Assembly (NCBI GenBank): GCA_965207375.1
Contig: CBDBMG010000002.1
Coordinates: 192,001-256,000 of the forward strand
Source of the DNA: Nitrosopumilaceae archaeon
GTDB taxonomy: Archaea > Thermoproteota > Nitrososphaeria > Nitrososphaerales > Nitrosopumilaceae
Direction of reading: 5' to 3'
Length of the DNA stretch: 64,000 nucleotides
This document shows, piece by piece, positions 27,098 to 46,010 of the stretch. The notes under the pieces are model-generated. The model saw only the letters and a program-made list of their open reading frames with translations. It was not told the DNA's origin and made no database searches. Both the position numbers and the translations under genes were made by a program. Within the stretch, counting starts at the first letter, position 1; each line of letters starts with the position of its first letter.

Positions 27098-29732
27098 AGT
27101 ACTACCGTACTTAATGATAGTCTATGATGTTTATACAAAGACCATGCAATGCAAATTTAGCTAGCTAGCTAGCTACCTTATTTGGTCTAGCCATATTGTA
27201 AGTGATTAGCAATAGGACGAACTAGCTAGCTATAGTGTAACCTCAATTCAACGATTCTCAATCATAGCTAGTCAAAACATAATCACAGCAGTCTTATTTT
27301 GCTATTGTAAGTTAGCAAAAATGTTAAAAAATAACTATATCAGTGGCACTCGCTATGACAGCTTTGTCTTGGCATGTCTTTGATATACGCATATAGGAGA
27401 AGAGGTCGTAACTCCGATGCTGATAGCTACCTCGGATACCGACCATGCTACATATACATCATACATCGTCACCATGCATGTGATGAGCGATGATATACAA
27501 TCAACATGTATGTAGCTACTACACCGAATAAGCTGAGTCAGAACCGTGTTTCCCCACAAAATATTAATCTAAGCTATAGTTATAGTCACAGCCGGTCAAA
27601 CTAGCTGAGCTCAGTGTTTGAGTGTATATTAACCGTAATCTGTATATATTTCAGTGTAGGTCGGGATATACGTACATATAGGTGACGTTATAGCTAATCA
27701 GTAGCTATATAGCTAGCTACCAATAGTCTCAGTATAGAAAATGCCAGTTGTTCTCGTGACGCTATAGCTATATTGGATATAATTAGAAAGTATTTTGAGG
27801 GTGAATATATTTCGTTAAGCTAGCTACGTAGCTTTAAATCTTCTGAAGCCATATGGTAAACACCAATAGTACGTAAATTCACTGCGATATACATAGCTAT
27901 ATAAGCACCAACCGTGCGGGAACCGGTGACTATATACGTGGTTACACATGATGAGTGCATGTCGGTCGTAGCTACACTACCATTTTCCATTTAGCTAATA
28001 GCTAGCTGTGTACCATCGATTGCATTTGCGTTTGAACATTTGTGTATCGCGTGATCTGCCACGTAATCCAATCTTCCGGACACATTGCCTTTCTAGCAGG
28101 CTCGCAAGGTAGTTTTATGTAAATCAAACCATATCATCTAGTAACATGGTTAAAATACACCATTATCTTACATTGCGTAGATTACAATGGATCACGCAAT
28201 GTTCAAATGCACGTGCAATCTACTGTTTCATTATTACTATTAATAGATATCATAAACGACAACAAACTTTTTGCAATTTATTGGGTTCACTCATAAACTT
28301 TCACGGTTTATTGAATAAATCAATGTGTACCTCAAACATTTAGTGTATTCACAGCCATCATGTAATTCATGTATAGCTACAACAATTTTATAGCTATTAT
28401 ACATACATATATACATAACTAGCTAGCTAGCTACATAATTATATATATACACGTATATAGTTGTTAAAATTATTAGCTATCTACGTAGCTATAGATACTA
28501 GGGTAATAGCTACAGCTTACATATTTGCTTAGCAGTATAGCTTATGCAATTGTCACAATGTATAACTAGTTAGCTAGATATGTTGTAGCTCGTATACATA
28601 GGTTGTAGCTATAATTGTTTCAGTGTAGTGAAGGCTATAGCTAGCTAGCTAAGTTGTCTAAATGTATTGTATGTATAGCTACCTTGTTGACCATTAGTAT
28701 AAGATAGTTAGCTCTTAACATAAAAATAAATTTCTTTGACTATAAAAGTCTTTATTAATGTTTGGGCAATTAGCTAATTAATGGTCATAAACCCAAACCA
28801 ATCTGATATTATGTAGTTATCATAATAATTATATTATATTTTCTGCTAAATAATTACGTATTATAAATTATGTATGTTAATGATGTATGGATAATAAGCA
28901 ACACATAGCTAAGACTAAAATAATTTTATATCTTGTGATAAATTGATAACATAGTGACATCATAGGGAAAGCATTAATTATGTCAGTATAACTTTTCAAA
29001 AATAAATTTTTAGCTAGTTGGCTTCTGTTGTCACCAAATGATGCATCAAATTTACCCATATACGTACATAGCTAGCTAGCTGCTAGCTAACTGCTAACAT
29101 CAGTAAAATAATCATGTTGTTAAGTAGCTAGCTACACGGTAAAACTTGCCTATGTAGCTAAATATATAGATACAGTGGCGTAACAAAGAATTTTATATTT
29201 GGGGGCCACTATATATATCAGTATATTCATTGAGCAGAATGCTTCACTCAGTTCATGCATGTATCTATCTAGCTAGCTGCTAGCTAGCTTTAGTAGATGC
29301 TCTGGAATTAGGCCTGCGTCGATTATGCTAGCATAATTTTTAGCATAAAGGTGTGCTAAAAAATCAAGCATAATTCCAGCATAATATTGAGTTATATTTA
29401 TGGTGTGCGTGGGGCGCAAACTGCATAATTAAAACATATAGCTACTCATGCCATTTATACAGCCTAAAAACTATAAAATACACTCACCCCCACTGCCATT
29501 TAACACTTCACAACAGCAGAAATTCACAAGGCATAGCTTCTACAACTCGTTAAAAGTCGTGTATTAGGCACCTCTAAAATTAATTATAATAATTTTGTTT
29601 AAAGCTTTTATACCACTGGCATGTGGCAGATCAGAATTATGCAATGCACACCCAATGGTATGTTATACACACTATATTGCTGCATACCAGTGGTGTGTTC
29701 CGTTTATACATATGTACCTTTGTGTGCCCACT

Positions 29733-30632
29733 CACCCGCTTCACATTACGGTTATCAGGTATTACGTACCTGTTATTAAGGAATTTTTACAGGTATTGCC
29801 TGGGTACCATGGTACGGGTTTATGTGTAAGCGCATGGCGGATTTATGCAAACTAAATAGGATTCCTGTAATTGAAATACAGTCTGCTTTTTCTAGAACTG
29901 GACTCTCCTGCTCTCCTGTTTCAGGTGCGTGCTGATTTTATAGAATTATTATGTAATACTTCAGTATCAACTAAGCCACCTGGCTTGCTAATCAGTAGTG
30001 TTCAATGGTCAGTAGACTGAAATCCCTTTCCAGTGCATGCCTGAATTGCCAATGGCTGTAGTTGTGACATAGTAAAGCCCATCAGTTGATGAGTTATGTG
30101 ATTTCCTGGATTGTCAGTGCGGGACGTGAAGGCCCAGGGTGTCACATACATACTTACTGTAGAGTGATCTGCAACCGGAGTCAAGCTCAAAGTTAACAGT
30201 CAAGGTCTCCGAAAACAATCCGTTGATAGATCAAATAAAACTTGAAGCCCACAATCAAATATAACAAGTTTACTAAACATATGAACTTTTACTAGAATAT
30301 ACTGTACTTTTTAATGTAATTCACCTTGCACTGTGCATGCGGCTGTATCTTAGAGTAAATCAATGAAATAGTGAATCAATGAAATAGACAGGTGGTTGGG
30401 TAATGATAAAGCTGCTATGGTGTAATGTGTTACACCTGCATGCTACACAAGAATCTGAAAATAGTAAAAGCACAGGTGTTAAAACCGAGAATTTACAAAG
30501 GAGCAATCTGGGAGGAGCAATCTGGGAGCAACAGAGTTCTGCAGTAAGTCAGCAGTCAAGCAGTAAATCAACAGTCAAGGTTAAATTTTCAGGTCAAGAC
30601 TTTGTCCGCAGTTGCAGATCAACCTACGGTGT
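29733..30632 (+). repeat. Left TIR of KDZ element
   Basis: Reverse complement of 43194-44107 with scattered substitutions and small indels. Confidence 0.92.
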
Positions 30633-30903
30633 GTAGCTATGTGCGAGACACCCCCTTGAAGCAAGTGTCACCAAAACCTGTAACATGGCATGGTAATACC
30701 TGTAAAATTTCCTTAATAACAAATACGTAATACCTAATAAGCGCATGGCAGATTTATGTGAAATAGGATTCATTTGAAATAGGATTCATTTCTAGACCCA
30801 CAATTGAATATCATCAACCCTTGCTATAATATTTAATAGTGCCTGATCTACCTGTCAAACCTGACTTGCTAAATAAGTAGTAATTATTCTATTCTCAAGC
30901 AAC

Positions 30904-33900
30904 ATGATATCTGCAAAGCCAAAGATTAGAAGGAAGAAGAGCCGTTCTACTATTGAAATGAACTTTGTGACTGCTTTGAAAAGATCAGGAAACATTCAGA
31001 TGAAAAGAATATTAGTGCCTTTATCAAGTTCAGCTACAGTATCTGCAAGAACTAATTCAGATTCTCAATCTGTGGAAGCTATGATTGACCACAACAATAA
31101 ACCCATGTATTCTGATTCAATAGGTGATTGGTATTTTGTGTACAATTGATAAATTTCATTATTTATACAAGGGTATATACATTATGCATAGCAGCAATGT
31201 TATGTATGTGGTATGATAGTATATACGTATGTACATACATGTGCAATGAAATTTTGTAAAAAGGCCAACTTTATTTTTGTAAACCAATGCAAGGAGTTAC
31301 GTATGTAAGTAATTTACATATGTATGTACATAGATGAAGTTCCCATGTCAGCTGACTATGCCACCTCTTCAGAAGAGCAGGAAGAAGATCAGCTGCAGAT
31401 TCCACCATACCAGAGAAGGCAACAAAAAGCTGCTGAAGCATGGGAAGAAATAAGAAAAGAATTACTCCATGGCGCTGTAGTGTCTATTCCTATTCCATCT
31501 AATGCAATTTGTATAATTTGTCGTAAGGAGGCTGCAACTGTTTTATGCAAACAGTGTGGTAGTCAGGGATACTTTTGTGAAGCTTGTGCTATTAATTTGC
31601 ATTCAAATATCAATATTCTACATGCACCTGTCATACAAAAGGTACGTTTGTACGTAGCTATGTGTTGGTTTAACAGATCATTTACAAGTCTGTAGTGGCA
31701 GTGTGGTATGTTTGTTGTTTGATGATTATGTAGATAAAGATAAAATATAAGTTGCATACCTATTTTCATTGCAGGACACTAAGCAGTTGCCAATGAAACT
31801 GCCTACAGCTGTAACAAAATTAAATCATAATTGTGGTTCTAGTTGTTACTCTTATCGAACAATCACATGTGTTGGTCTATGCGGTGAGGAACTGTTACCG
31901 TATATGACAAAACAGTCGAGGGGGAAAACTTTCACGATTTTTGCTCAATTGCGAAAGTTTTCCCGTTGAATACTACACTAGACCCTAGGCATTCATTATT
32001 ACAAGAAGCTTCTACCACAAAAGTTTTCCCGTTGAATTTTCATTTTTACTCTAACCGCGAAAGTTTTCCTCCTTGAATGTTTTGTCGTATACGGTATTTA
32101 GTGGAAATACAGACAGTACTTGTGTATAAATGTGCACCTGTATAGGTATTCAACGTGATATCTCTTTTGAGAAATGTCCTTGTACTAGTGAAGCACAGAC
32201 TCTTCTTCAAGCGGGATTCTTTCCTGCAACAGCTACTCGGCCAAGGCTAGCCTTTGCATTAGAATTGCTTGATCTTTTAGAAGCGTTGCTATTTGAATGT
32301 CAACTTGCTGTTCAGGATTTTGTGTCTGCTCTCCGCTATCTTCATAGTCCATATGCTGATCATACTTTGGTAGTACATATACTTGCCTTACATAAAAACG
32401 ATATTTCTGATTCTTTCAGATTTACAAGTCACTGTACCCTGTTCTAATAGACTGTTTTGAAGAATACAGGTTTGCTTTTTGAATTTTAGATAAGTACATA
32501 AATGTGTATGAATGCATAAGCATTATACGTACGTACACGAGGAAGTTTTAAATACGCAAGTTTATTTGCTGATGCTTCTACTTTTTTGTTTTTCTGCTGG
32601 CTTCAAATAATTCACATAGCCTTGTTTTTATTTATATACATAGTATAACAGGGGCATTAGAACAGGTATGGTTAGTTGTACATATTAATACTGAAAGAGT
32701 CAATTGTACTGGCCAGTACATATAATTATGTAGAGCCATAGAGTAAAGTTATGCAATGTTGCCTTCAGATATTTATATGCCATATGTGGATATTCATGAG
32801 ACTTGTTTATGTATGTTATTATGTATTTAGCGGTCTAACAATTATCATTTATAATATCTATGGACTGCGTGTTTATGCACTCGCACTCAGAGTGCATTAT
32901 GCTTAATCGCCTATATATCTTCTTCTTTTACATGACTGGACCACTTTAAGTGCTTCTGATTCACCATATTCCAGGTATATGAAATGCTGTCTCAAAGAAC
33001 TTAAATTTATTGACCCTGATATCAGCAGCACAATTCAGTGTCCAGCTTGTCCAAAGGTAAATGTGCTCATGAACTGTAGCTAATTTAATGCTTGCTTATG
33101 GCTAGTAAAAATGTACAAGTACAAATGTAATTATGTTTTCTTTTAATTTAGAGTGGAGGAAGTTTATTTCTGTCTATTGATGGACTCTTTGGATTATGCA
33201 GAAAGAAATCAGCTGGTCAAAGTGTATGTCAACCACTGCAAGATGGAAAGTACTTTGAACCACAAGCTAAAGTAGATAGCTTTGTTGACCATTACCCTAG
33301 ACCATATGTTCACAGCAACCAAGTGGTGGTACGTACGTGTATAGTGTATTACAGATGTTACGGGTCTTTTGATATTTCAGAATTGTAATGATTTTCTTGC
33401 TGGTGATCTTATAAGATCAAGGACAAGGTTTGCTGCATTAGATGAGACTGGTGTTATCGGTATAGCTTGTCGGCATGAACATCCATTTCGATTCTACAGT
33501 TTACGTCATGGAGAGAGGTGCATAATTGTTGTACATACGTATACACATTATGTTTTGAGTATGTACTAGGATTTCCTACATTGTTTATGCTTTGGAGTAT
33601 ATAAAGCAACACTGTCCAGAGGATTCGAAGGTCTACCTGTTATATGATGTAGCTTGTGCACTTCAACGACACTTAAAGGTATGGTCAAATGTACATAATG
33701 TATTGTACATTAATTTTAGTTGCTTCTGATCAGAATCATAAGAAGACAGAGTTACTGGACTTCTTTAACATGGCTGTTCCAGTATTCCATGCATATGGTC
33801 ACAAGTCAAGTTGCCAGGTCAGCTATAACTTTTAAAACATGCATGGCCTGTAATGTTGTGCTGATTTTTGTAACAGCTAACTATGAGTGCAAGATATCAG

Positions 33901-36850
33901 ATAGGATTTGGGTTGACTGATGGTGAAGTGCTGGAAAGACTATGGTCATTTTTACGTCGTTTTTCTAAGATGACGAAAGAAATGCGATCCGCACATAGAG
34001 TTGATGTTCTGACAGATGCACTAATATACTATTCACAGCTGACATCTGAAAACTTGAGTAAGACCATAAGCTACATATGTGTGCACACTGAATGTCTTCA
34101 TTATTTTTTCTTATGTTTATTAGAAAATCTTCTTCCTAAAAGATTTAAATGAGCACTATGTGTTTGGATAGATGCTGATAATGATTTAGATAAACTAGTA
34201 TCCAGGAGCCCAGGTATAATTTATTCGATTTTTTGAAAAATCATTGTACATATGAGTGTATGCACACATGTATACAATCATATGTACATACTTGTTTGTT
34301 TGCATTAGCTTTGTCTTTTACTTGTAACAAGACTTACATAGCCACTGCATACATACGTACATACATCTGCATCTTATTCATTTATCCATATGTATGTGTG
34401 TAGTACCATTTAATGAAGATAGCATTCAGACTTGGCTAGATGCTGAAAGCTGTTCATCAAATGTTCAACAACCAAGTAGGTTATTTAAGAAGCTACGTAT
34501 TATACCTACAACCATTCAGTAATTTCCAATCTAATATTTCAATTAGATTGATCATTTAGATTGTTTGCTGTATCTAATATTTTAACTATATTTATCACCT
34601 ATGTACATATAACAGAGTATAAGGAAACTAGCGCTAATTGAAATTTCAATTGTTTAAAATTGGATGTTATGCTTGTTTAATATTCTATCCATCACTGTGC
34701 ATGTCTGCAGGTGAAGTAAATCAGTGGAAACTCCAATATTTGAAATTGCTTAAATCATCTATTTATATCAGGTTTGTGTCACTCAGATGTATCTACGTAC
34801 TAAAGGTAGTTTTCAATATATTATTCAACAGTAACCAAATTGCAGTATACACTGGAGATAATCCCTCATATGTCTCTGCATTATCTTCTCAATTGCAAAA
34901 GTAAGATGTTGTATAGCATATTTTTATTTTGACTTGCGTACATTTAGGCTTGAGCGGAAATTAAAGGTGACTGAAAGAGAACATAGTATACCACAACGAT
35001 GGACACCAGATTCTCCATCATACCAAGCCATATCAGACTTCAAATGGAGCAATCAAAACATGATGCTTTTGCAAAGCTGGAGCAATGTGCCAGAGAACGA
35101 TGGTTTTTACTTACTATTAAAGCAAAATATGCAGGTATGTACACATGCAGTGTTTTTTATTTATATAATTTTGCTTATGTACATGCATACATGTCACTAC
35201 TCTTATGTTACATAATTTATCAGATGGCCAATATATGGCATCCCGTATATCAAGAGGCATTCAACGGGAAACACAGAAGTTGAAAAGGCTTTTACATAAA
35301 TACAATCAATTGGTATCTGATCATCTCTCTTGGAAAGATGTGACTGATTTATCATCATCCACCTGGAACCCAGCTGATGGTAATAATATTACACGTCCTC
35401 CCAGATCAATCAGATTGGCTGCAATCGATGCTTATGTCAAAAAGCTTAGGGCTACTGAAGAAAAAGAATTAATAAAGACAGAGATGTGCAATATTATCAG
35501 CTTCTATTTAAACCAATATGATGACATCAACCGACTGTTAGACAGTTTTCACTCAAATTCAGAGTTTAGTAGAGGATGTCTTGTTCTTTTAAATAGGAAC
35601 TTAAGTGAGTGTAAGAAGAAAATATTCGATAATTATACTGCATTCAAAGACTATACACTCAGCTGCCTCAAGTTCCTGAAGAACTAATGTTACATGCACA
35701 CTTACCAGATACAGTCAAGTACGTAGCTGTATGATCACTGCTTATAAGTGTATATGTAAGATAATTTGTTGTTCCACAACCTTAGCAATCCTATTGATGA
35801 CTGTAATCATGATCATAGGGATCACGATCCAGGTGTTGATGAATATCATCATGTTGGTTTGAGTGATGGGTATCCACGTGAAGGTATTGATGATGGTCTT
35901 GATACTCTAGATCACAATTCTGATGTTGATTACAATGATGATAAGCTTGATGATGGGCTTTATGGACTTGACGATGCTACCAGTGTTCATGATAATGTTG
36001 ATTTAGATGATGATGAGTTTGATGACGGGCTTTATGGAGTTGATGATGCTACCAGTGTTCATAATGATGATAATGTTGATTTAGATGATGATGTAGATGA
36101 TCCTGATTTTCATAAATGTCTTGTCAGTATCAATGATACTAACAGTGATGATGTTGGCAAGGATGAATACACCCATGATGATGATCAATACAGTCATTAT
36201 GATATCAGTGACTACAGTCAAGTGGTTGTAAAGAGTTATGATATGAAACACAGTGATTATTACTTTTGTAATGCATATAAGTATGTAATACGTATGATTT
36301 CATAGTTGATTATACTGATGATGATGATGATGATGATGAGTTTGATTCTGAAGTAGCATGCAATCATGCTAGAGTAGCAAGAAACCGGCTAGAAAAGGAG
36401 GAATTTTTGCAGGTATATAATATGTGCATATATATCTGATTGTGACCATGTGACTTCATACGTATCTGTATGATTGATTCATCATGTGTAATATTATTGT
36501 TTACTTTATAATCAGCAACATCGTCAAAGTGAAGATCTACTAGCCCTTCTTCCAAAAGTGAAAATAGCTTCTACAAGAAAAGCTGTTGCAGATAGCCAGG
36601 CTACCGGTATGTTAAAAATATCCCTATCACTGCTGACTTTTTTAGAAAAATACATGTTCTTGAATGTACTATAAAAGTTGATGTGCTTCTTCCTACAGGT
36701 GGTAAGAAGACAATGTTTCTTCATCGCTCCCAAGAAGAGTTGCACAGTATGTACAAATCTTTTCAAGCAGACTTGACCAGAGAAAGGATTGCTACAGCCT
36801 TAGCCAATGTATCAACATTCAACATTACACTCAAAACCAAACCCAGTTAA
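30904..36850 (+). CDS. CxC zinc-cluster + KDZ (Kyakuja-Dileera-Zisupton) transposase, ~20 exons; probably inactivated (TGA at 34150-34152)
   Basis: Exons give CIIC..CKQC..FCEAC..H..H (31507-31625), LLQAGFFPAT..RPRLAF, CPACPK, SIDGLFGLCRK (~33171), DETGVIGIACRH, LLYDVAC, VFHAYGH..CQ, GFGLTDGEVLERLWS and KEMR..HR.D.L. This is the canonical KDZ core motif order. Acidic C-terminal tail; last exon 36699-36850. Confidence 0.88.
31896..32095. mobile_element. TA-flanked MITE in a transposase intron
   Basis: TACCGTATATGACAAAAC ... GTTTTGTCGTATACGGTA; related copy at ~53980-54148. Confidence 0.75.
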
Positions 36851-37316
36851 CTATACACATCAAAACCACTTGTGATTACATTATCAAGCTGTACATTGAT
36901 TATGATATTATACATAATTATATAATGCACGCACATGTAGCCATACATTCTAGATCTTGGCTTTGCTTCACTGTATACGTAGATTTGGATTTGCATGCAT
37001 GTATGCAGTTAGCTACTAAAAGCCAGTAGTTTTGGCACATAATGCACATATATCCAATTCCACACTGCGATTTTGATAATGCTTTACAAATACTCTTTGG
37101 CTTGTATAAATGTATATATATAATTATATGTGTTCCACTAAATGCGCAAGAGCATGCATTAATGCAAAGTAGCTATATTATGTATTAATAATATTTTGTA
37201 ATTTGATTCAAAATTGCATAAAATGTACATTCATAAAATTAATACTGTCATACAACATTATTGTGGAAATTAAATATTTGGTATACATGCGGGTGCATGT
37301 GAATTATAATTACATG

Positions 37317-42901
<5,585 letters not shown>

Positions 42902-43193
42902 TATGTACTTTAATCTATAAAAAGAAGTGTTTTTTGCACATGATGAAACATGTTTAAGGGATCCAAAATGTAAGAACAGCAGTTATAGGATTAATATATC
43001 ACTGCAAAGGCTGCATTAAAATATTTATAGTCCTATGTGTGTAGCCGTTATAAGGAACTAGCTATAAGCTCTAACTAACACTGTGATATTTTAAAAGCTT
43101 CTACACAAAATTGGCAAGTTGCAGGCACCTTATGTTATTGCTCACTTGCATATTTCTCCTTTTATGTACAAAGGGATATAGCTAATTACCTTT

Positions 43194-44107
43194 ACACCGT
43201 AGGTTGATCCGCAACTGTGGACAAAGTCTTGACCTGAAAATTTAACCTTGACTGTTGATTTACTGCTTGACTGCTGACTTACTGCAGAACTCTGTTGCTC
43301 CCAGATTGCTCCTTTGTAAATTCTCGGTTTTAACGCCTGTGCTTTTACTATTTTCAGATTCTTGTGTAGCATGCAGGTGTAACACATTACACCACAGCAG
43401 CTTTATCATTACCCAACCACCTGTCTATTTCATTAATTCACTATTTCATTGATTTACTCTAAGATACAGCCGCATGCACAGTGCAAGGTGAATTACATTA
43501 AAAAATACAGTATATTCTAGTAAAAGTTCATATGTTTAGTAAACTTGTTATATTTGATTGTGGGCTTCAAGTTTTATTTGCCTTTATTTGACCTATTACT
43601 GGATTGTTTTCGGAGACCTTGACTATTAACTTTGAGCTTGACCCCGGTTGCAGATCACTCTACAGTAAGTATGTATGTGACACCCTGGGCCTTCACGTCC
43701 CACACTGAGCAATCCAGGAAATCACATAACTCATCAACTGATGGGCTTTACTATGTCACAACTACAGCCATTGGCAATTCAGGCATGCACTGGAAAGGGA
43801 TTTCAGTCTACTGACCATTGAACACTACTGATTAGCAAGCCAGGTGGCTTAGTTGATACTGAAGTATTACATAATAATTCTATAAAATCAGCACACACCT
43901 GAAACAGGAGAGCAGGAGAATCCAGTTCTAGAAAAAGCAGACTGTATTTCAATTACAGGAATCCTATTTAGTTTCTGTCGCATAAATCCGAGCATAAATC
44001 CACCATGCGCTCACACATAAACCCGTACCATGGTACCCAGGCAATACCTGTAAAAATTCCTTAATAACAGGTACGTAATACCTGATAACCGTAATGTGAA
44101 GCGGGTG
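43194..44107 (-). repeat. Right TIR of KDZ element
   Basis: Reverse complement of 29733-30632; ends GTAATGTGAAGCGGGTG. Confidence 0.92.
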
Positions 44108-44284
44108 GCCCACTACTTGATGGCATTAGCGCCACCTATATAAGCGCGTCACGTTATGAATAGGCGCAGTTACTTGCATGATAGGAAGACGACAATATCG
44201 TTTTAAAACCCACATGTTATTCAGATACAATTGTCACATGCGTACAAGCGTTGTTTAAAAGGCATTTATTATTTATTTACTCTA

Positions 44285-45174
44285 CGGTACCGCTCAGTTT
44301 AAATTTGACACTTGCACGCGTGTGTCACTGTAGTCGCTCGCAGATTTTGCCAGGCAACTCGCGAGTTACACGCAAGCACACAACAAATCGATCCTCGTGA
44401 CGAGTCATATGCACATGAAGTGCACTCAAGAGAAGGTTACCCTGCTCGCGAGCTGTCTCACGTTACGTGCGCTTGTTAGTGCCTCGCGAGTTATGCACGC
44501 GTGTAGTTTGTCTCTCCTCGTGATTCTAGTAATACTCAGCATTATCATCTAACATACGTACCAGCTGTGAAACTACAGATAATCATCCTGGAGTAGATTT
44601 CTTCGTCGACAAATCAAGCGCGAGCGCTTACAGTTGTAATACGGGTGCCTAACACGTGTTTATAATAAGCTTCTTATATTTTAGGGCGCCAATAACACGT
44701 GTTAGTGATTTAGTAGTTTTTGTAGTTTGTTGCAGTCTTTGGGAAGCAAAGGAAAGGCCTACAGTAGATTGGAAAAGAGGTAGTACTGTAACTACTACAT
44801 TGCTGTTGGTTAAAGTCTTCCTGCTCGGTTCCACACAATTAAATTATATCACCGAATGTCTTAAAACCTTTGATAGATCTCTAGCAATGATTATATGATA
44901 GAGCTAGGCCTTTTCACTTTATTAATTTCACCCCATGCATTAGCCATGCGAGTGCATCTGTTTGCGTGCGATAGGCTTCTGGCGTGCCTCGTGGCGTAGC
45001 TCACGCATGTCGTGTCGAGTGTATGCTCGCTCGCGGGCAGTGTATTCTATTGTGCATATATGCTCTCGTGCCATACAACCAGCATGCGAGTAACTCGCGT
45101 GTGCTTCGACAAAATCTGTTAAATGCACACGTGTTTGCTGCACGCGAGTGTCAATTTTAAACTGAGCTGTACCG
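44285..45174. mobile_element. TA-flanked MITE with CG...CG termini, CpG-rich
   Basis: TA|CGGTACCGCTCAGTTTAAATTTGACACT ... AGTGTCAATTTTAAACTGAGCTGTACCG|TA. Confidence 0.8.
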
Positions 45175-46010
45175 TAATATAGACATGATATACTTCATCT
45201 GTAATTCCAGTAGATTCAACATGTTTGCTTAGATTCATTCATGTGTCAAGTTTTGGTGTTTCCAATGGAGATAGGTATGTACCACTACGTATACTGTGAA
45301 ATGTATTTTTTAACTTGTATGTCACTGTAGGGTGGTACATACAAAGATATACATGCAGTAGTGAGGTTGCTGCAGCTGAAGAAGGAAAGGAAGTAGCTGG
45401 TAGAAGTCACTGAAAAAGTAACCGCAGAAGAAATTGTAGAACATGAAGTTGTTATTTTAAATGTATTTACATAATTTTAAATGTATTTTGTAGCAATTTG
45501 AAATATAATTATTTAATCTATGCATTTCATACCTTGGGACATACTTTTATTCAGTTGGTTTGCATATAATACACCAAAATAGTGTGAGGTAACTGGACTT
45601 ACTGGAGGTTCATAAACAAATGAGAGCTTTGAAATATATATTAAATTGTGTATTATTAGTATCATAATTGATTGTGGAATAGCATAAAATCTAGCATAAT
45701 ACAGTACGTAGGTGCAAAATTGGAGCAATTCCAAAAAGCATAGCTAATAGGCAATTTTCAAAGCATAATAGACACAGCCCTATCTGGAATTAGCATTTTA
45801 GCCAAAAGCTGTGCTATGAAAGTACAGTATATGTGTATAATAATAACTTTGTGGATGTTATAAACGACTGGGATATGCTGCATGGCAGCACACAAGAGAA
45901 GCGGTTTTGTCAGCATCATGCTTAAGGCTATTTATTAAACTACATAGCTACATATAATTATTATAAATGCAGCTATATACAACACAGAAACAATATGTTT
46001 GTGTATATTA

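Follow-up and report, generated by a model that had tools for sequence, protein, structure and literature searches.

The KDZ/Zisupton transposons are, to our knowledge, among the least studied superfamilies of DNA transposons, and we know of no member that has been reconstituted. Vertebrate genes have been reported as derived from Zisupton transposases, while the platyfish Zisupton reportedly carries terminal inverted repeats (TIRs) of 99 bp and one coding sequence of 24 exons, of which a Ulp1 protease is said to be a splice isoform. In other superfamilies a second protein is well known. MuDR of maize encodes a transposase (mudrA) and an accessory protein (mudrB) in convergent orientation, each expressed from a promoter in a long TIR, and En/Spm encodes TnpD together with TnpA, a separate DNA-binding protein serving the transposase. 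Zisupton elements have been described as 'multi-exonic', with proteins of up to 1400 amino acids (PMC9297572), and two further sources give 8-bp target-site duplications (PMC12730594) and, for the platyfish protein, an F-box isoform as well as a CxC7 cluster spanning residues 1333-1393 (PMC12062965). Fungal Kyakuja elements are characterised by 7-bp duplications, 5'-CA...TG-3' termini, TET/JBP dioxygenase genes and a lack of TIRs (PMC12730594, Kojima 2025). The KDZ papers cited here report one transposase gene, joined in fungi by TET/JBP cargo. The element considered here, E1, occupies positions 29733-44107 of a 64,000-nucleotide stretch (the window; contig C3:192001-256000 of a four-contig, 4.3-Mb assembly) filed under a Nitrosopumilaceae archaeon. 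The host DNA is clearly that of an animal, probably a sponge, and was binned with the archaeal genome.

E1 is a real and recently mobile cut-and-paste transposon of 14.4 kb, with two convergent intron-rich genes between long TIRs; KDZ/CxC exons are found on the plus strand and homeodomain, HMG and GTF2I exons on the minus strand. An inverted-repeat search paired the left TIR (29733-30639, plus strand; 907 nt) with the right TIR (43187-44107, minus strand; 921 nt) in five gap-free blocks (I1-I5) of 116, 265, 126, 288 and 162 nt, with complementarities of 98, 99, 94, 98 and 86 %, respectively. A single gapped blastn alignment gave 93.6 % over 928 columns, in agreement with the ~900-bp TIRs postulated in an earlier interpretation made from the letters alone (the sequence-only reading). 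The exact flanking duplication it reported is likewise present, with GCCCACT at 29726-29732 on the left and 44108-44114 on the right abutting the termini 5'-CACCCGCTTCACAT...GGGTG-3'. Both ends read 5'-CACCCGCTTCACATTACGG, giving the termini CACCCG...CGGGTG, and the mismatch at the eighth base limits the duplication to 7 bp. The two genes face inward and each starts just inside a long TIR, as had been proposed: the minus-strand ATG at 42901 lies 286 nt in from 43187, where the right TIR ends, and a putative plus-strand ATG at 30904, a start taken from the open reading frame (ORF) only, lies 264 nt inward of the left TIR edge (30639). Terminal bases 17-68 recur as an inverted copy (pair I6; 88 %; 30692-30743, minus strand) just inside the left TIR, and no counterpart was found on the right side of E1. 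With this copy on the left only, 29733-30760 by itself resembles a 1-kb foldback element or a precursor of a miniature inverted-repeat transposable element (MITE).

The mobility of E1 is evident from public data. The stretch is contained in twelve public runs from four studies, none of them recorded as RNA, of which one per study (X1, X4, X8 and X12) was compared; contig depths from these runs are rough and no copy number was taken from them. In three of the four runs (X1, X8 and X12), contigs connect position 29705 to 44108 via 25 other letters ending in ...CCTTTGTGT and hold one GCCCACT, and the same 25 letters of the insertion-free junction are seen as a loose end in X4. The immediate flanks of E1 are unique in the 4.3-Mb assembly and the 14.4 kb that is skipped lacks intron-like ends; the junction contigs are therefore read as the insertion-free allele, that is, as the empty site with a single GCCCACT which had been suggested as a check. 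A second copy of E1, at C4:18328-30814, matches the window copy at 99.9-100 % identity, apart from 1.9 kb that it does not contain (window 40445-42321). As its flanks are 99.6-99.9 % identical and the duplication is the same, it represents the other haplotype of one insertion and not an independent copy. The missing segment (40445-42321) removes the third exon of the minus-strand gene, with the joint 40433>42322 recovered in X1, while X4 holds the full-length form alone at this segment.

The plus-strand gene (30904-37200; start codon and 3' end approximate) was delimited with Pfam, tblastn and tblastx and comprises at least 15 exons, the number of conserved blocks found by tblastx against two local paralogues, E2 and E3. 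Full-length relatives are collinear with it over 31381-35669 (tblastn). From the N-terminus, it includes a conserved zinc-finger block (31372-31671), a CxC1 block (32130-32476), the KDZ core (33152-34065; SIDGLF at 33179, CRHE at 33468, YDVAC at 33643, FHAYGH at 33785 and DGEVLER at 33919), a conserved C-terminal block (35074-35718) and an acidic, aspartate-rich tail (35786-36260), which holds a 72-nt (24-codon) tandem repeat of 2.3 copies at 35923-36092. Pfam was applied to single stop-to-stop ORFs, ten of which were scanned for E1. The ORF 32130-32447 matched CxC1 at 43.7 bits (cut-off 26.9) and CxC2 at 38.2 bits, and exon 33874-34152 matched KDZ (PF18758) at 39.6 bits (cut-off 26.6, E 6e-10). 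Exon 33345-33569 by itself scored 22.4 bits, under the KDZ cut-off, and B-box/ZZ-like zinc fingers on the transposase ORFs all fell below the Pfam cut-offs. The motifs SIDGLF, CRHE, YDVAC, FHAYGH..CQ and DGEVLER occupy invariant or near-invariant columns among 28 relatives (D132, D253, H282/H286 and E308/E311 of the alignment), and this D, D, H, E set is presumed to be catalytic, a role taken from the family description. The sequence-only reading was thus correct in recognising a KDZ transposase, a group for which it named CxC motifs and a D-D-H-E core.

Relatives carrying PF18758 at E<=1e-3 number sixty-three and belong to sponges, corals, fish, tunicates and lancelets. Those with names include Dysidea (74 %), Geodia, Halichondria, Xiphophorus (61 %) and Ciona proteins, the 61 % identity being that of an exon with a Xiphophorus maculatus protein. 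Both the relatives and the domains fit the assignment of E1 to an animal KDZ-superfamily DNA transposon, the animal probably being a sponge. Contigs of X8 and X12 contain the GT..AG joints 36409>36513 and 36605>36698 (skipping 36410-36512 and 36606-36697), which resemble spliced RNA, the run type being unrecorded. A short MITE-like repeat lies in a transposase intron (31895-32097); element positions 2164-2365 match five other places, coincide with a depth peak and give tblastx matches in all frames.

For the minus-strand gene, hereafter the partner (37317-42901), a splice and phase search yielded seven exons with six GT-AG introns in one open frame of 373 amino acids. Exon 1 (42901-42746) encodes homeodomain helices 1-2, exon 2 (42697-42558) combines helix 3 with the N-terminal half of the HMG domain in one exon, and exon 3 (42033-41859) supplies the C-terminal HMG half. 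In the same seven-exon model these are followed by exons 4 (40431-40281) and 5 (39931-39848), a GTF2I-like repeat in exon 6 (39439-39278) and a beta-barrel domain with the stop codon in exon 7 (37570-37317). As single exons, the Homeodomain (24.6 bits), HMG_box_2 (23.3 bits) and GTF2I (34.1 bits) matches all exceed the Pfam cut-offs. The GTF2I-like repeat (PF02946, cut-off 27) scores 40.9 bits in E2 and 47.8-58.6 bits in Dysidea proteins, and the Pfam scan found no second I-repeat in the partner or in the Dysidea proteins, each showing one above the cut-off. When the GTF2I exon was used as a protein-search query, none of 76 candidates was significant. A 27-nt tandem repeat of 20.8 copies (38540-39110), open in all three minus-strand frames, lies between exons 6 and 7. 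It is possibly a coding linker, as Dysidea homologues have coding repeats at this point, and optional exon paths through it exist in the splice search. The transposase contig extends to ~37.2 kb and the partner stop is at 37317, so that the two convergent genes end no more than a few hundred bases apart. Joining exon 2 to exon 4, as in the deletion haplotype, would shift the partner frame according to the phases of the seven-exon model.

The C-terminal barrel of ~75 amino acids (37320-37574, minus strand) is the part of the partner kept in all three local elements. An AlphaFold2 model built with 47 sequences predicts a small beta-barrel (predicted local distance difference test score 93, predicted template modelling (TM) score 0.81). 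No significant match was found in Foldseek, where generic SH3-like barrels were the nearest folds (best E 0.066, TM<=0.55), and there was no sequence match in PDB. A Pfam scan of the 47 members of the barrel alignment (A2) at E<=0.1 gave matches to seven families, all outside the barrel; GTF2I fell on the I-repeats of two full-length Dysidea rows and the other five families were single-row matches at E 0.002-0.1. The three local barrels and the relatives P0074 and P0084, scanned at E values up to 10, matched no family in the Pfam copy used, which does not hold PF26133, a family assigned to the Dysidea relatives P0157 and P0218 in a source's precomputed list. Against 1.84 billion proteins, the barrel profile retrieved 133 representatives at E<=1e-3 (54 at <=1e-10), one of which is a bacterial repeat protein and was taken as a false match. 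Most representatives are short gene calls on long contigs, and in several clusters numerous near-identical proteins come from different contigs; one 50 %-identity cluster includes 14 proteins of >=90 % identity, each from its own long contig. A search of genome contigs with a single barrel protein gave 454 pattern stretches, none of which was confirmed. In the ESM Atlas, and as a lead only, P0218 points to a cnidarian cluster of 166 members (GTF2I 52 %, Homeodomain 18 %, score 0.77). A short [DEH]H[TSC]Y motif was found by whole-sequence regular expression in 33 of the 133 barrel-domain proteins (P0064-P0196), and in the A2 rows printed it precedes the barrel by some tens of residues.

That the partner belongs with the transposase can be judged from related elements. 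Two further, diverged KDZ loci were detected in the 4.3 Mb by tblastn of all exon ORFs. Element E2 (C3:77527-101072) has the termini CACCCGCTTCGCAT and 168-nt TIRs that are 100 % identical, and its partner exons are convergent with the transposase and occur in the same order, namely the HMG half, the exon-4 and exon-5 equivalents, GTF2I (41 % identity, E 5e-10) and the barrel (E 3e-8). Element E3 (C4:619548-632737), with TIRs of ~1.2 kb and 77-94 % identity, has a partner consisting of the barrel ORF only, which lies 314 nt inside the left TIR, points inward and is convergent with the transposase. A hidden Markov model of the barrel, run on all six-frame ORFs of the 4.3 Mb, matched the E1, E2 and E3 loci alone; hence all three KDZ loci have a barrel and all three barrel loci are KDZ. 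Among the local elements, partner and transposase have diverged to a similar degree, with identities of 26-41 % for the partner and 27-55 % for the transposase. The only named barrel proteins are from Dysidea avara, where they are called 'GTF2IRD1-like' (in NCBI, 'general transcription factor II-I repeat domain-containing protein 1-like') or uncharacterised. They combine HMG, the exon-4 region, GTF2I, repeats and the barrel, and are encoded on at least three long contigs (multi-copy).

The partner looks like a regular companion of the transposase and not a stray passenger, because the pairing recurs in related elements. The view of the sequence-only reading that the second gene is tied to KDZ and no bystander is thus upheld by its collinear, convergent position in E2, the barrel in E3 and its presence nowhere else in the 4.3 Mb, while the label 'cargo' attached to it there is the wrong word. 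E2 and E3 carry parts of the partner, and no target duplication was found at the termini of either. The 13-14-nt terminus of E1 also occurs in E2, in a solo terminus at C3:330300 and in an element from another host (L083, described below). The solo terminus spans ~178 nt (C3:330300-330477), is related to E1 (CACCTGCTTCGCATTTTGG..., 83 % over 84 nt) and contains two CAGGTAWTAC-like motifs, with no partner end nearby. Its candidacy as a fourth element was rejected, an inverted match 16.5 kb away being another repeat. The left TIR of E2 is split by a 776-bp MITE (C3:77605-78380), whose ends read GGTGGGGTATATTTCACGGAA... and whose 9-bp duplication is GATCCTATA.

Beyond this host, scans with the conserved transposase exon yielded 83 KDZ loci, 79 from metagenome contigs and four from a contaminated bacterial bin. 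Downstream and on the opposite strand, pieces of a second type of convergent gene (X-type), which has Ulp1-like protease and PHD finger parts besides a homeodomain/HMG-like head, were found at 32 loci (L083 and 31 further loci within L016-L085); among loci with at least 7 kb of downstream sequence the proportion was 31/38. One of these, L083, is a complete 10.05-kb element (L083:7004-17053) with 38-nt TIRs, termini CACCCGGTTCGCA, a perfect 7-bp target duplication (TGCCTCC) and CACCCG termini as in E1. In its convergent gene, one exon reads NWIRRRN... and then begins an HMG-like stretch, and another exon is likewise HMG-like; the gene also encodes a Ulp1-like protease and a PHD finger (32.3 bits). 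As the contigs of L082 and L083 are filed under the bacterial bin, that bin also holds animal DNA. A quick transposase tree was constructed from 71 rows of rough pseudo-proteins, all from animal relatives and loci, with loci of <330 residues left out and support from the Shimodaira-Hasegawa-like approximate likelihood ratio test (SH-aLRT) only. In this tree all 29 X-type rows, from those of the 32 X-type loci whose pseudo-proteins were long enough, form one clade (SH-aLRT 100), E2 and E3 cluster with Dysidea and Geodia proteins (support 100), and E1 pairs with one short metagenome locus, both on long branches; relations among the X-type, E2/E3 and E1 groups are without resolution.

On these comparisons, E1 is a variant of a widespread two-gene animal KDZ clade. 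The sequence-only reading had taken the architecture for a candidate undescribed system, yet the layout is not rare: with a convergent second gene bearing a homeodomain/HMG-like head at 31/38 loci, the two-gene arrangement is widespread, and only the tail of the partner and the long TIRs of E1 are special. The clade with CACCCG termini and 7-bp duplications normally has a convergent gene with a homeodomain/HMG-like head, whose tail is mostly of the Ulp1-like and PHD type but in E1 and its sponge relatives consists of the GTF2I-like repeat and barrel. No description of a separate homeodomain/HMG partner gene of KDZ elements was found in the literature passages searched, a search that did not cover Repbase or Dfam.

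Zisupton resembles E1 in being a multi-exon animal KDZ transposase with TIRs and target duplications, but differs in the length of the duplication (8 bp as opposed to 7 bp in E1 and L083) and in its cysteine clusters, with CxC7 in the platyfish protein and CxC1/2/3 near the N-terminus in E1. CxC7 is not among the Pfam matches of the ten E1 ORFs, which do not include all of the far C-terminal exons. Furthermore, the reportedly single coding sequence and 99-bp TIRs of Zisupton contrast with the 0.9-kb TIRs and separate convergent gene of E1, in which there is no Ulp1. Kyakuja shares with E1 the 7-bp duplications and CA..TG termini, whereas its fungal families lack the TIRs found in E1 (907/921 nt), E2 (at least 168 nt) and L083 (38 nt) and carry TET/JBP genes where E1 carries a homeodomain-HMG-GTF2I-barrel gene. 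The geometry of MuDR, with two convergent genes starting at or inside long TIRs, is the same as that of E1, which is an analogy and not homology, as MURA is unrelated to KDZ, the duplications are 9 bp, the TIRs are ~0.2 kb and MURB is unrelated to the partner. PIF/Harbinger (transposase and Myb/SANT protein) and En/Spm are likewise two-protein transposons, but of other superfamilies and with other DNA-binding domains, and the need for the second protein is proven in those systems and inferred for E1. Vertebrate TFII-I/GTF2I proteins have several I-repeats, while in the E1 partner one was found, fused to a homeodomain, HMG and barrel and borne by a transposon.

The probable explanation for these observations taken together is an autonomous-looking KDZ cut-and-paste element whose convergent partner serves as an accessory factor of transposition. 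The transposase would cut and paste the element, leaving 7-bp duplications. The partner, by analogy with the Myb-like protein of PIF/Harbinger or TnpA of En/Spm, would act as the accessory factor and may bind DNA via its homeodomain-HMG head, which would recognise subterminal TIR sites and bend the DNA there. A candidate site is the motif CAGGTAWTRC, two of which are present per terminus (29756 and 29790 in the left TIR, 44041 and 44075 in the right TIR). The 64-kb window contains five matches, all in the terminal modules of E1, against an expectation of 0.76, and none of 100 shuffles reached five; TIR mirror copies account for two of the matches. The barrel, as the only part common to the three local elements, would dock the partner to the transposase or to chromatin. 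A predicted complex of residues 1-700 of a Dysidea transposase with a Dysidea partner barrel scored 0.24 (mark 0.32), which is evidence neither way. One shared, repeat-borne promoter would drive both genes, as in MuDR, and this is considered probable given that the two genes start 264-286 nt inward of identical repeats.

Several observations weigh against this explanation or weaken parts of it. In X1 the deletion joint 40433>42322 has a depth of 304, compared to 104 on the full-length segment, which implies that the partner is at least dispensable in cis. The homeodomain is missing from E2 and the Dysidea proteins, and together with the barrel-only E3 these forms indicate that the DNA-binding head is not constant; with the exon-3 deletion allele, they count against a strict requirement for the partner. 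The HMG half of E2, at 21.3 bits, falls just below the Pfam cut-off, E2 is without a target duplication of its own, and the apparent integrity of the E1 transposase is judged from conserved blocks only. The 83 KDZ loci of other hosts all lack the GTF2I/barrel tail, and the Ulp1-like match of L083 (15.5 bits) is below the Pfam cut-off. Profiles of the X-type head exons did select the matching E1 and E2 exons among 12 targets (E 8.3e-5, 4.6e-4 and 2.8e-3), but the scores of 7.6-12.5 bits could reflect generic HMG similarity. Common descent of the E1/E2 and X-type heads is suggestive only, since jackhmmer searches from the X-type head exons over all ORFs recovered no E1 or E2 exon.

The partner may instead be directed at the host, as a chromatin or silencing modifier, a repressor or a means of dosage control, with the tails doing the work and the head tethering them. 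Such a role, which is regarded as rather unlikely, would be in keeping with the swapping of tails between clades while the head is loosely kept. It would also agree with the nature of PHD fingers and SH3-like barrels as typical chromatin- or protein-binding modules (weak structural neighbours of the barrel are Tudor, PWWP and CAP-Gly) and with the close spacing of the convergent 3' ends. In its favour, too, the TET/JBP enzymes of fungal KDZ elements are thought to counter methylation-based silencing (PMC12730594). However, none of the fold matches of the barrel is significant, and the barrel-only E3, which has no DNA tether, fits a protein-protein adaptor at least as well.

If the second gene were a captured host transcription-factor gene (GTF2I-like, HMG, homeodomain), carried as a passenger without a role in transposition, decay or loss would be expected. 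The E1 partner, however, has an open 373-residue frame with canonical splice sites, and partners have been kept collinear and convergent while the transposases diverged to 27-55 % identity, with no copy elsewhere in the 4.3 Mb. Moreover, in the sister clade a convergent gene of analogous function is standard (31/38 loci). A passenger is thus judged unlikely, even though the domains are typical of host transcription factors, as the NCBI name of the Dysidea relatives illustrates, and the deletion allele persists, its joint being the deeper form in X1. The absence of the GTF2I/barrel tail from the 83 loci of other hosts would also suit such a capture, and fungal KDZ elements are described as capturing TET/JBP genes (PMC12730594). 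A host locus of two convergent genes within an inverted segmental duplication, for which the single insertion site (on two haplotypes) in the 4.3 Mb might speak, is scarcely credible in view of the exact 7-bp duplication and the insertion-free allele with a single copy, the KDZ transposase with its conserved motif set, and the 13-14-nt terminus common to E2, the solo end and L083.

The interest of the system is that in a whole animal KDZ clade the transposase is accompanied by a convergent gene whose product is of a DNA-binding type, one branch using a GTF2I-like repeat and barrel. E1 offers a young, polymorphic and apparently intact element for testing a two-component KDZ model. A broader proposal, that animal KDZ elements are two-component systems with a modular partner of end-reading head and swappable tails, and that the sponge partner is the stock from which the vertebrate TFII-I/GTF2I I-repeat was domesticated, is doubtful; it would parallel the vertebrate genes reported to derive from Zisupton transposases. 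E1 also points to a transposon as a possible origin of the GTF2I repeat outside vertebrates. The multi-copy partner genes annotated as host transcription factors ('GTF2IRD1-like', Dysidea avara) call for caution in annotation, and the presence of animal contigs inside prokaryotic genome bins is a practical warning.

Two further features were observed in and beside E1. A fragment resembling eukaryotic large-subunit ribosomal RNA (41305-41685, plus strand; Rfam RF02543, 76.7 bits, E 9e-17, model positions 24-664) sits in intron 3 of the partner, within the segment deleted in the other haplotype. In all four runs, 41374-41471 is swapped for nine other letters, and the adjacent bins are very deep. 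Just to the right of E1, a polymorphic MITE-like repeat of ~930 bp with 33-nt inverted ends (44252-45188) is present in the window haplotype but not in the other, and contigs of X1, X4 and X12 pass over it.

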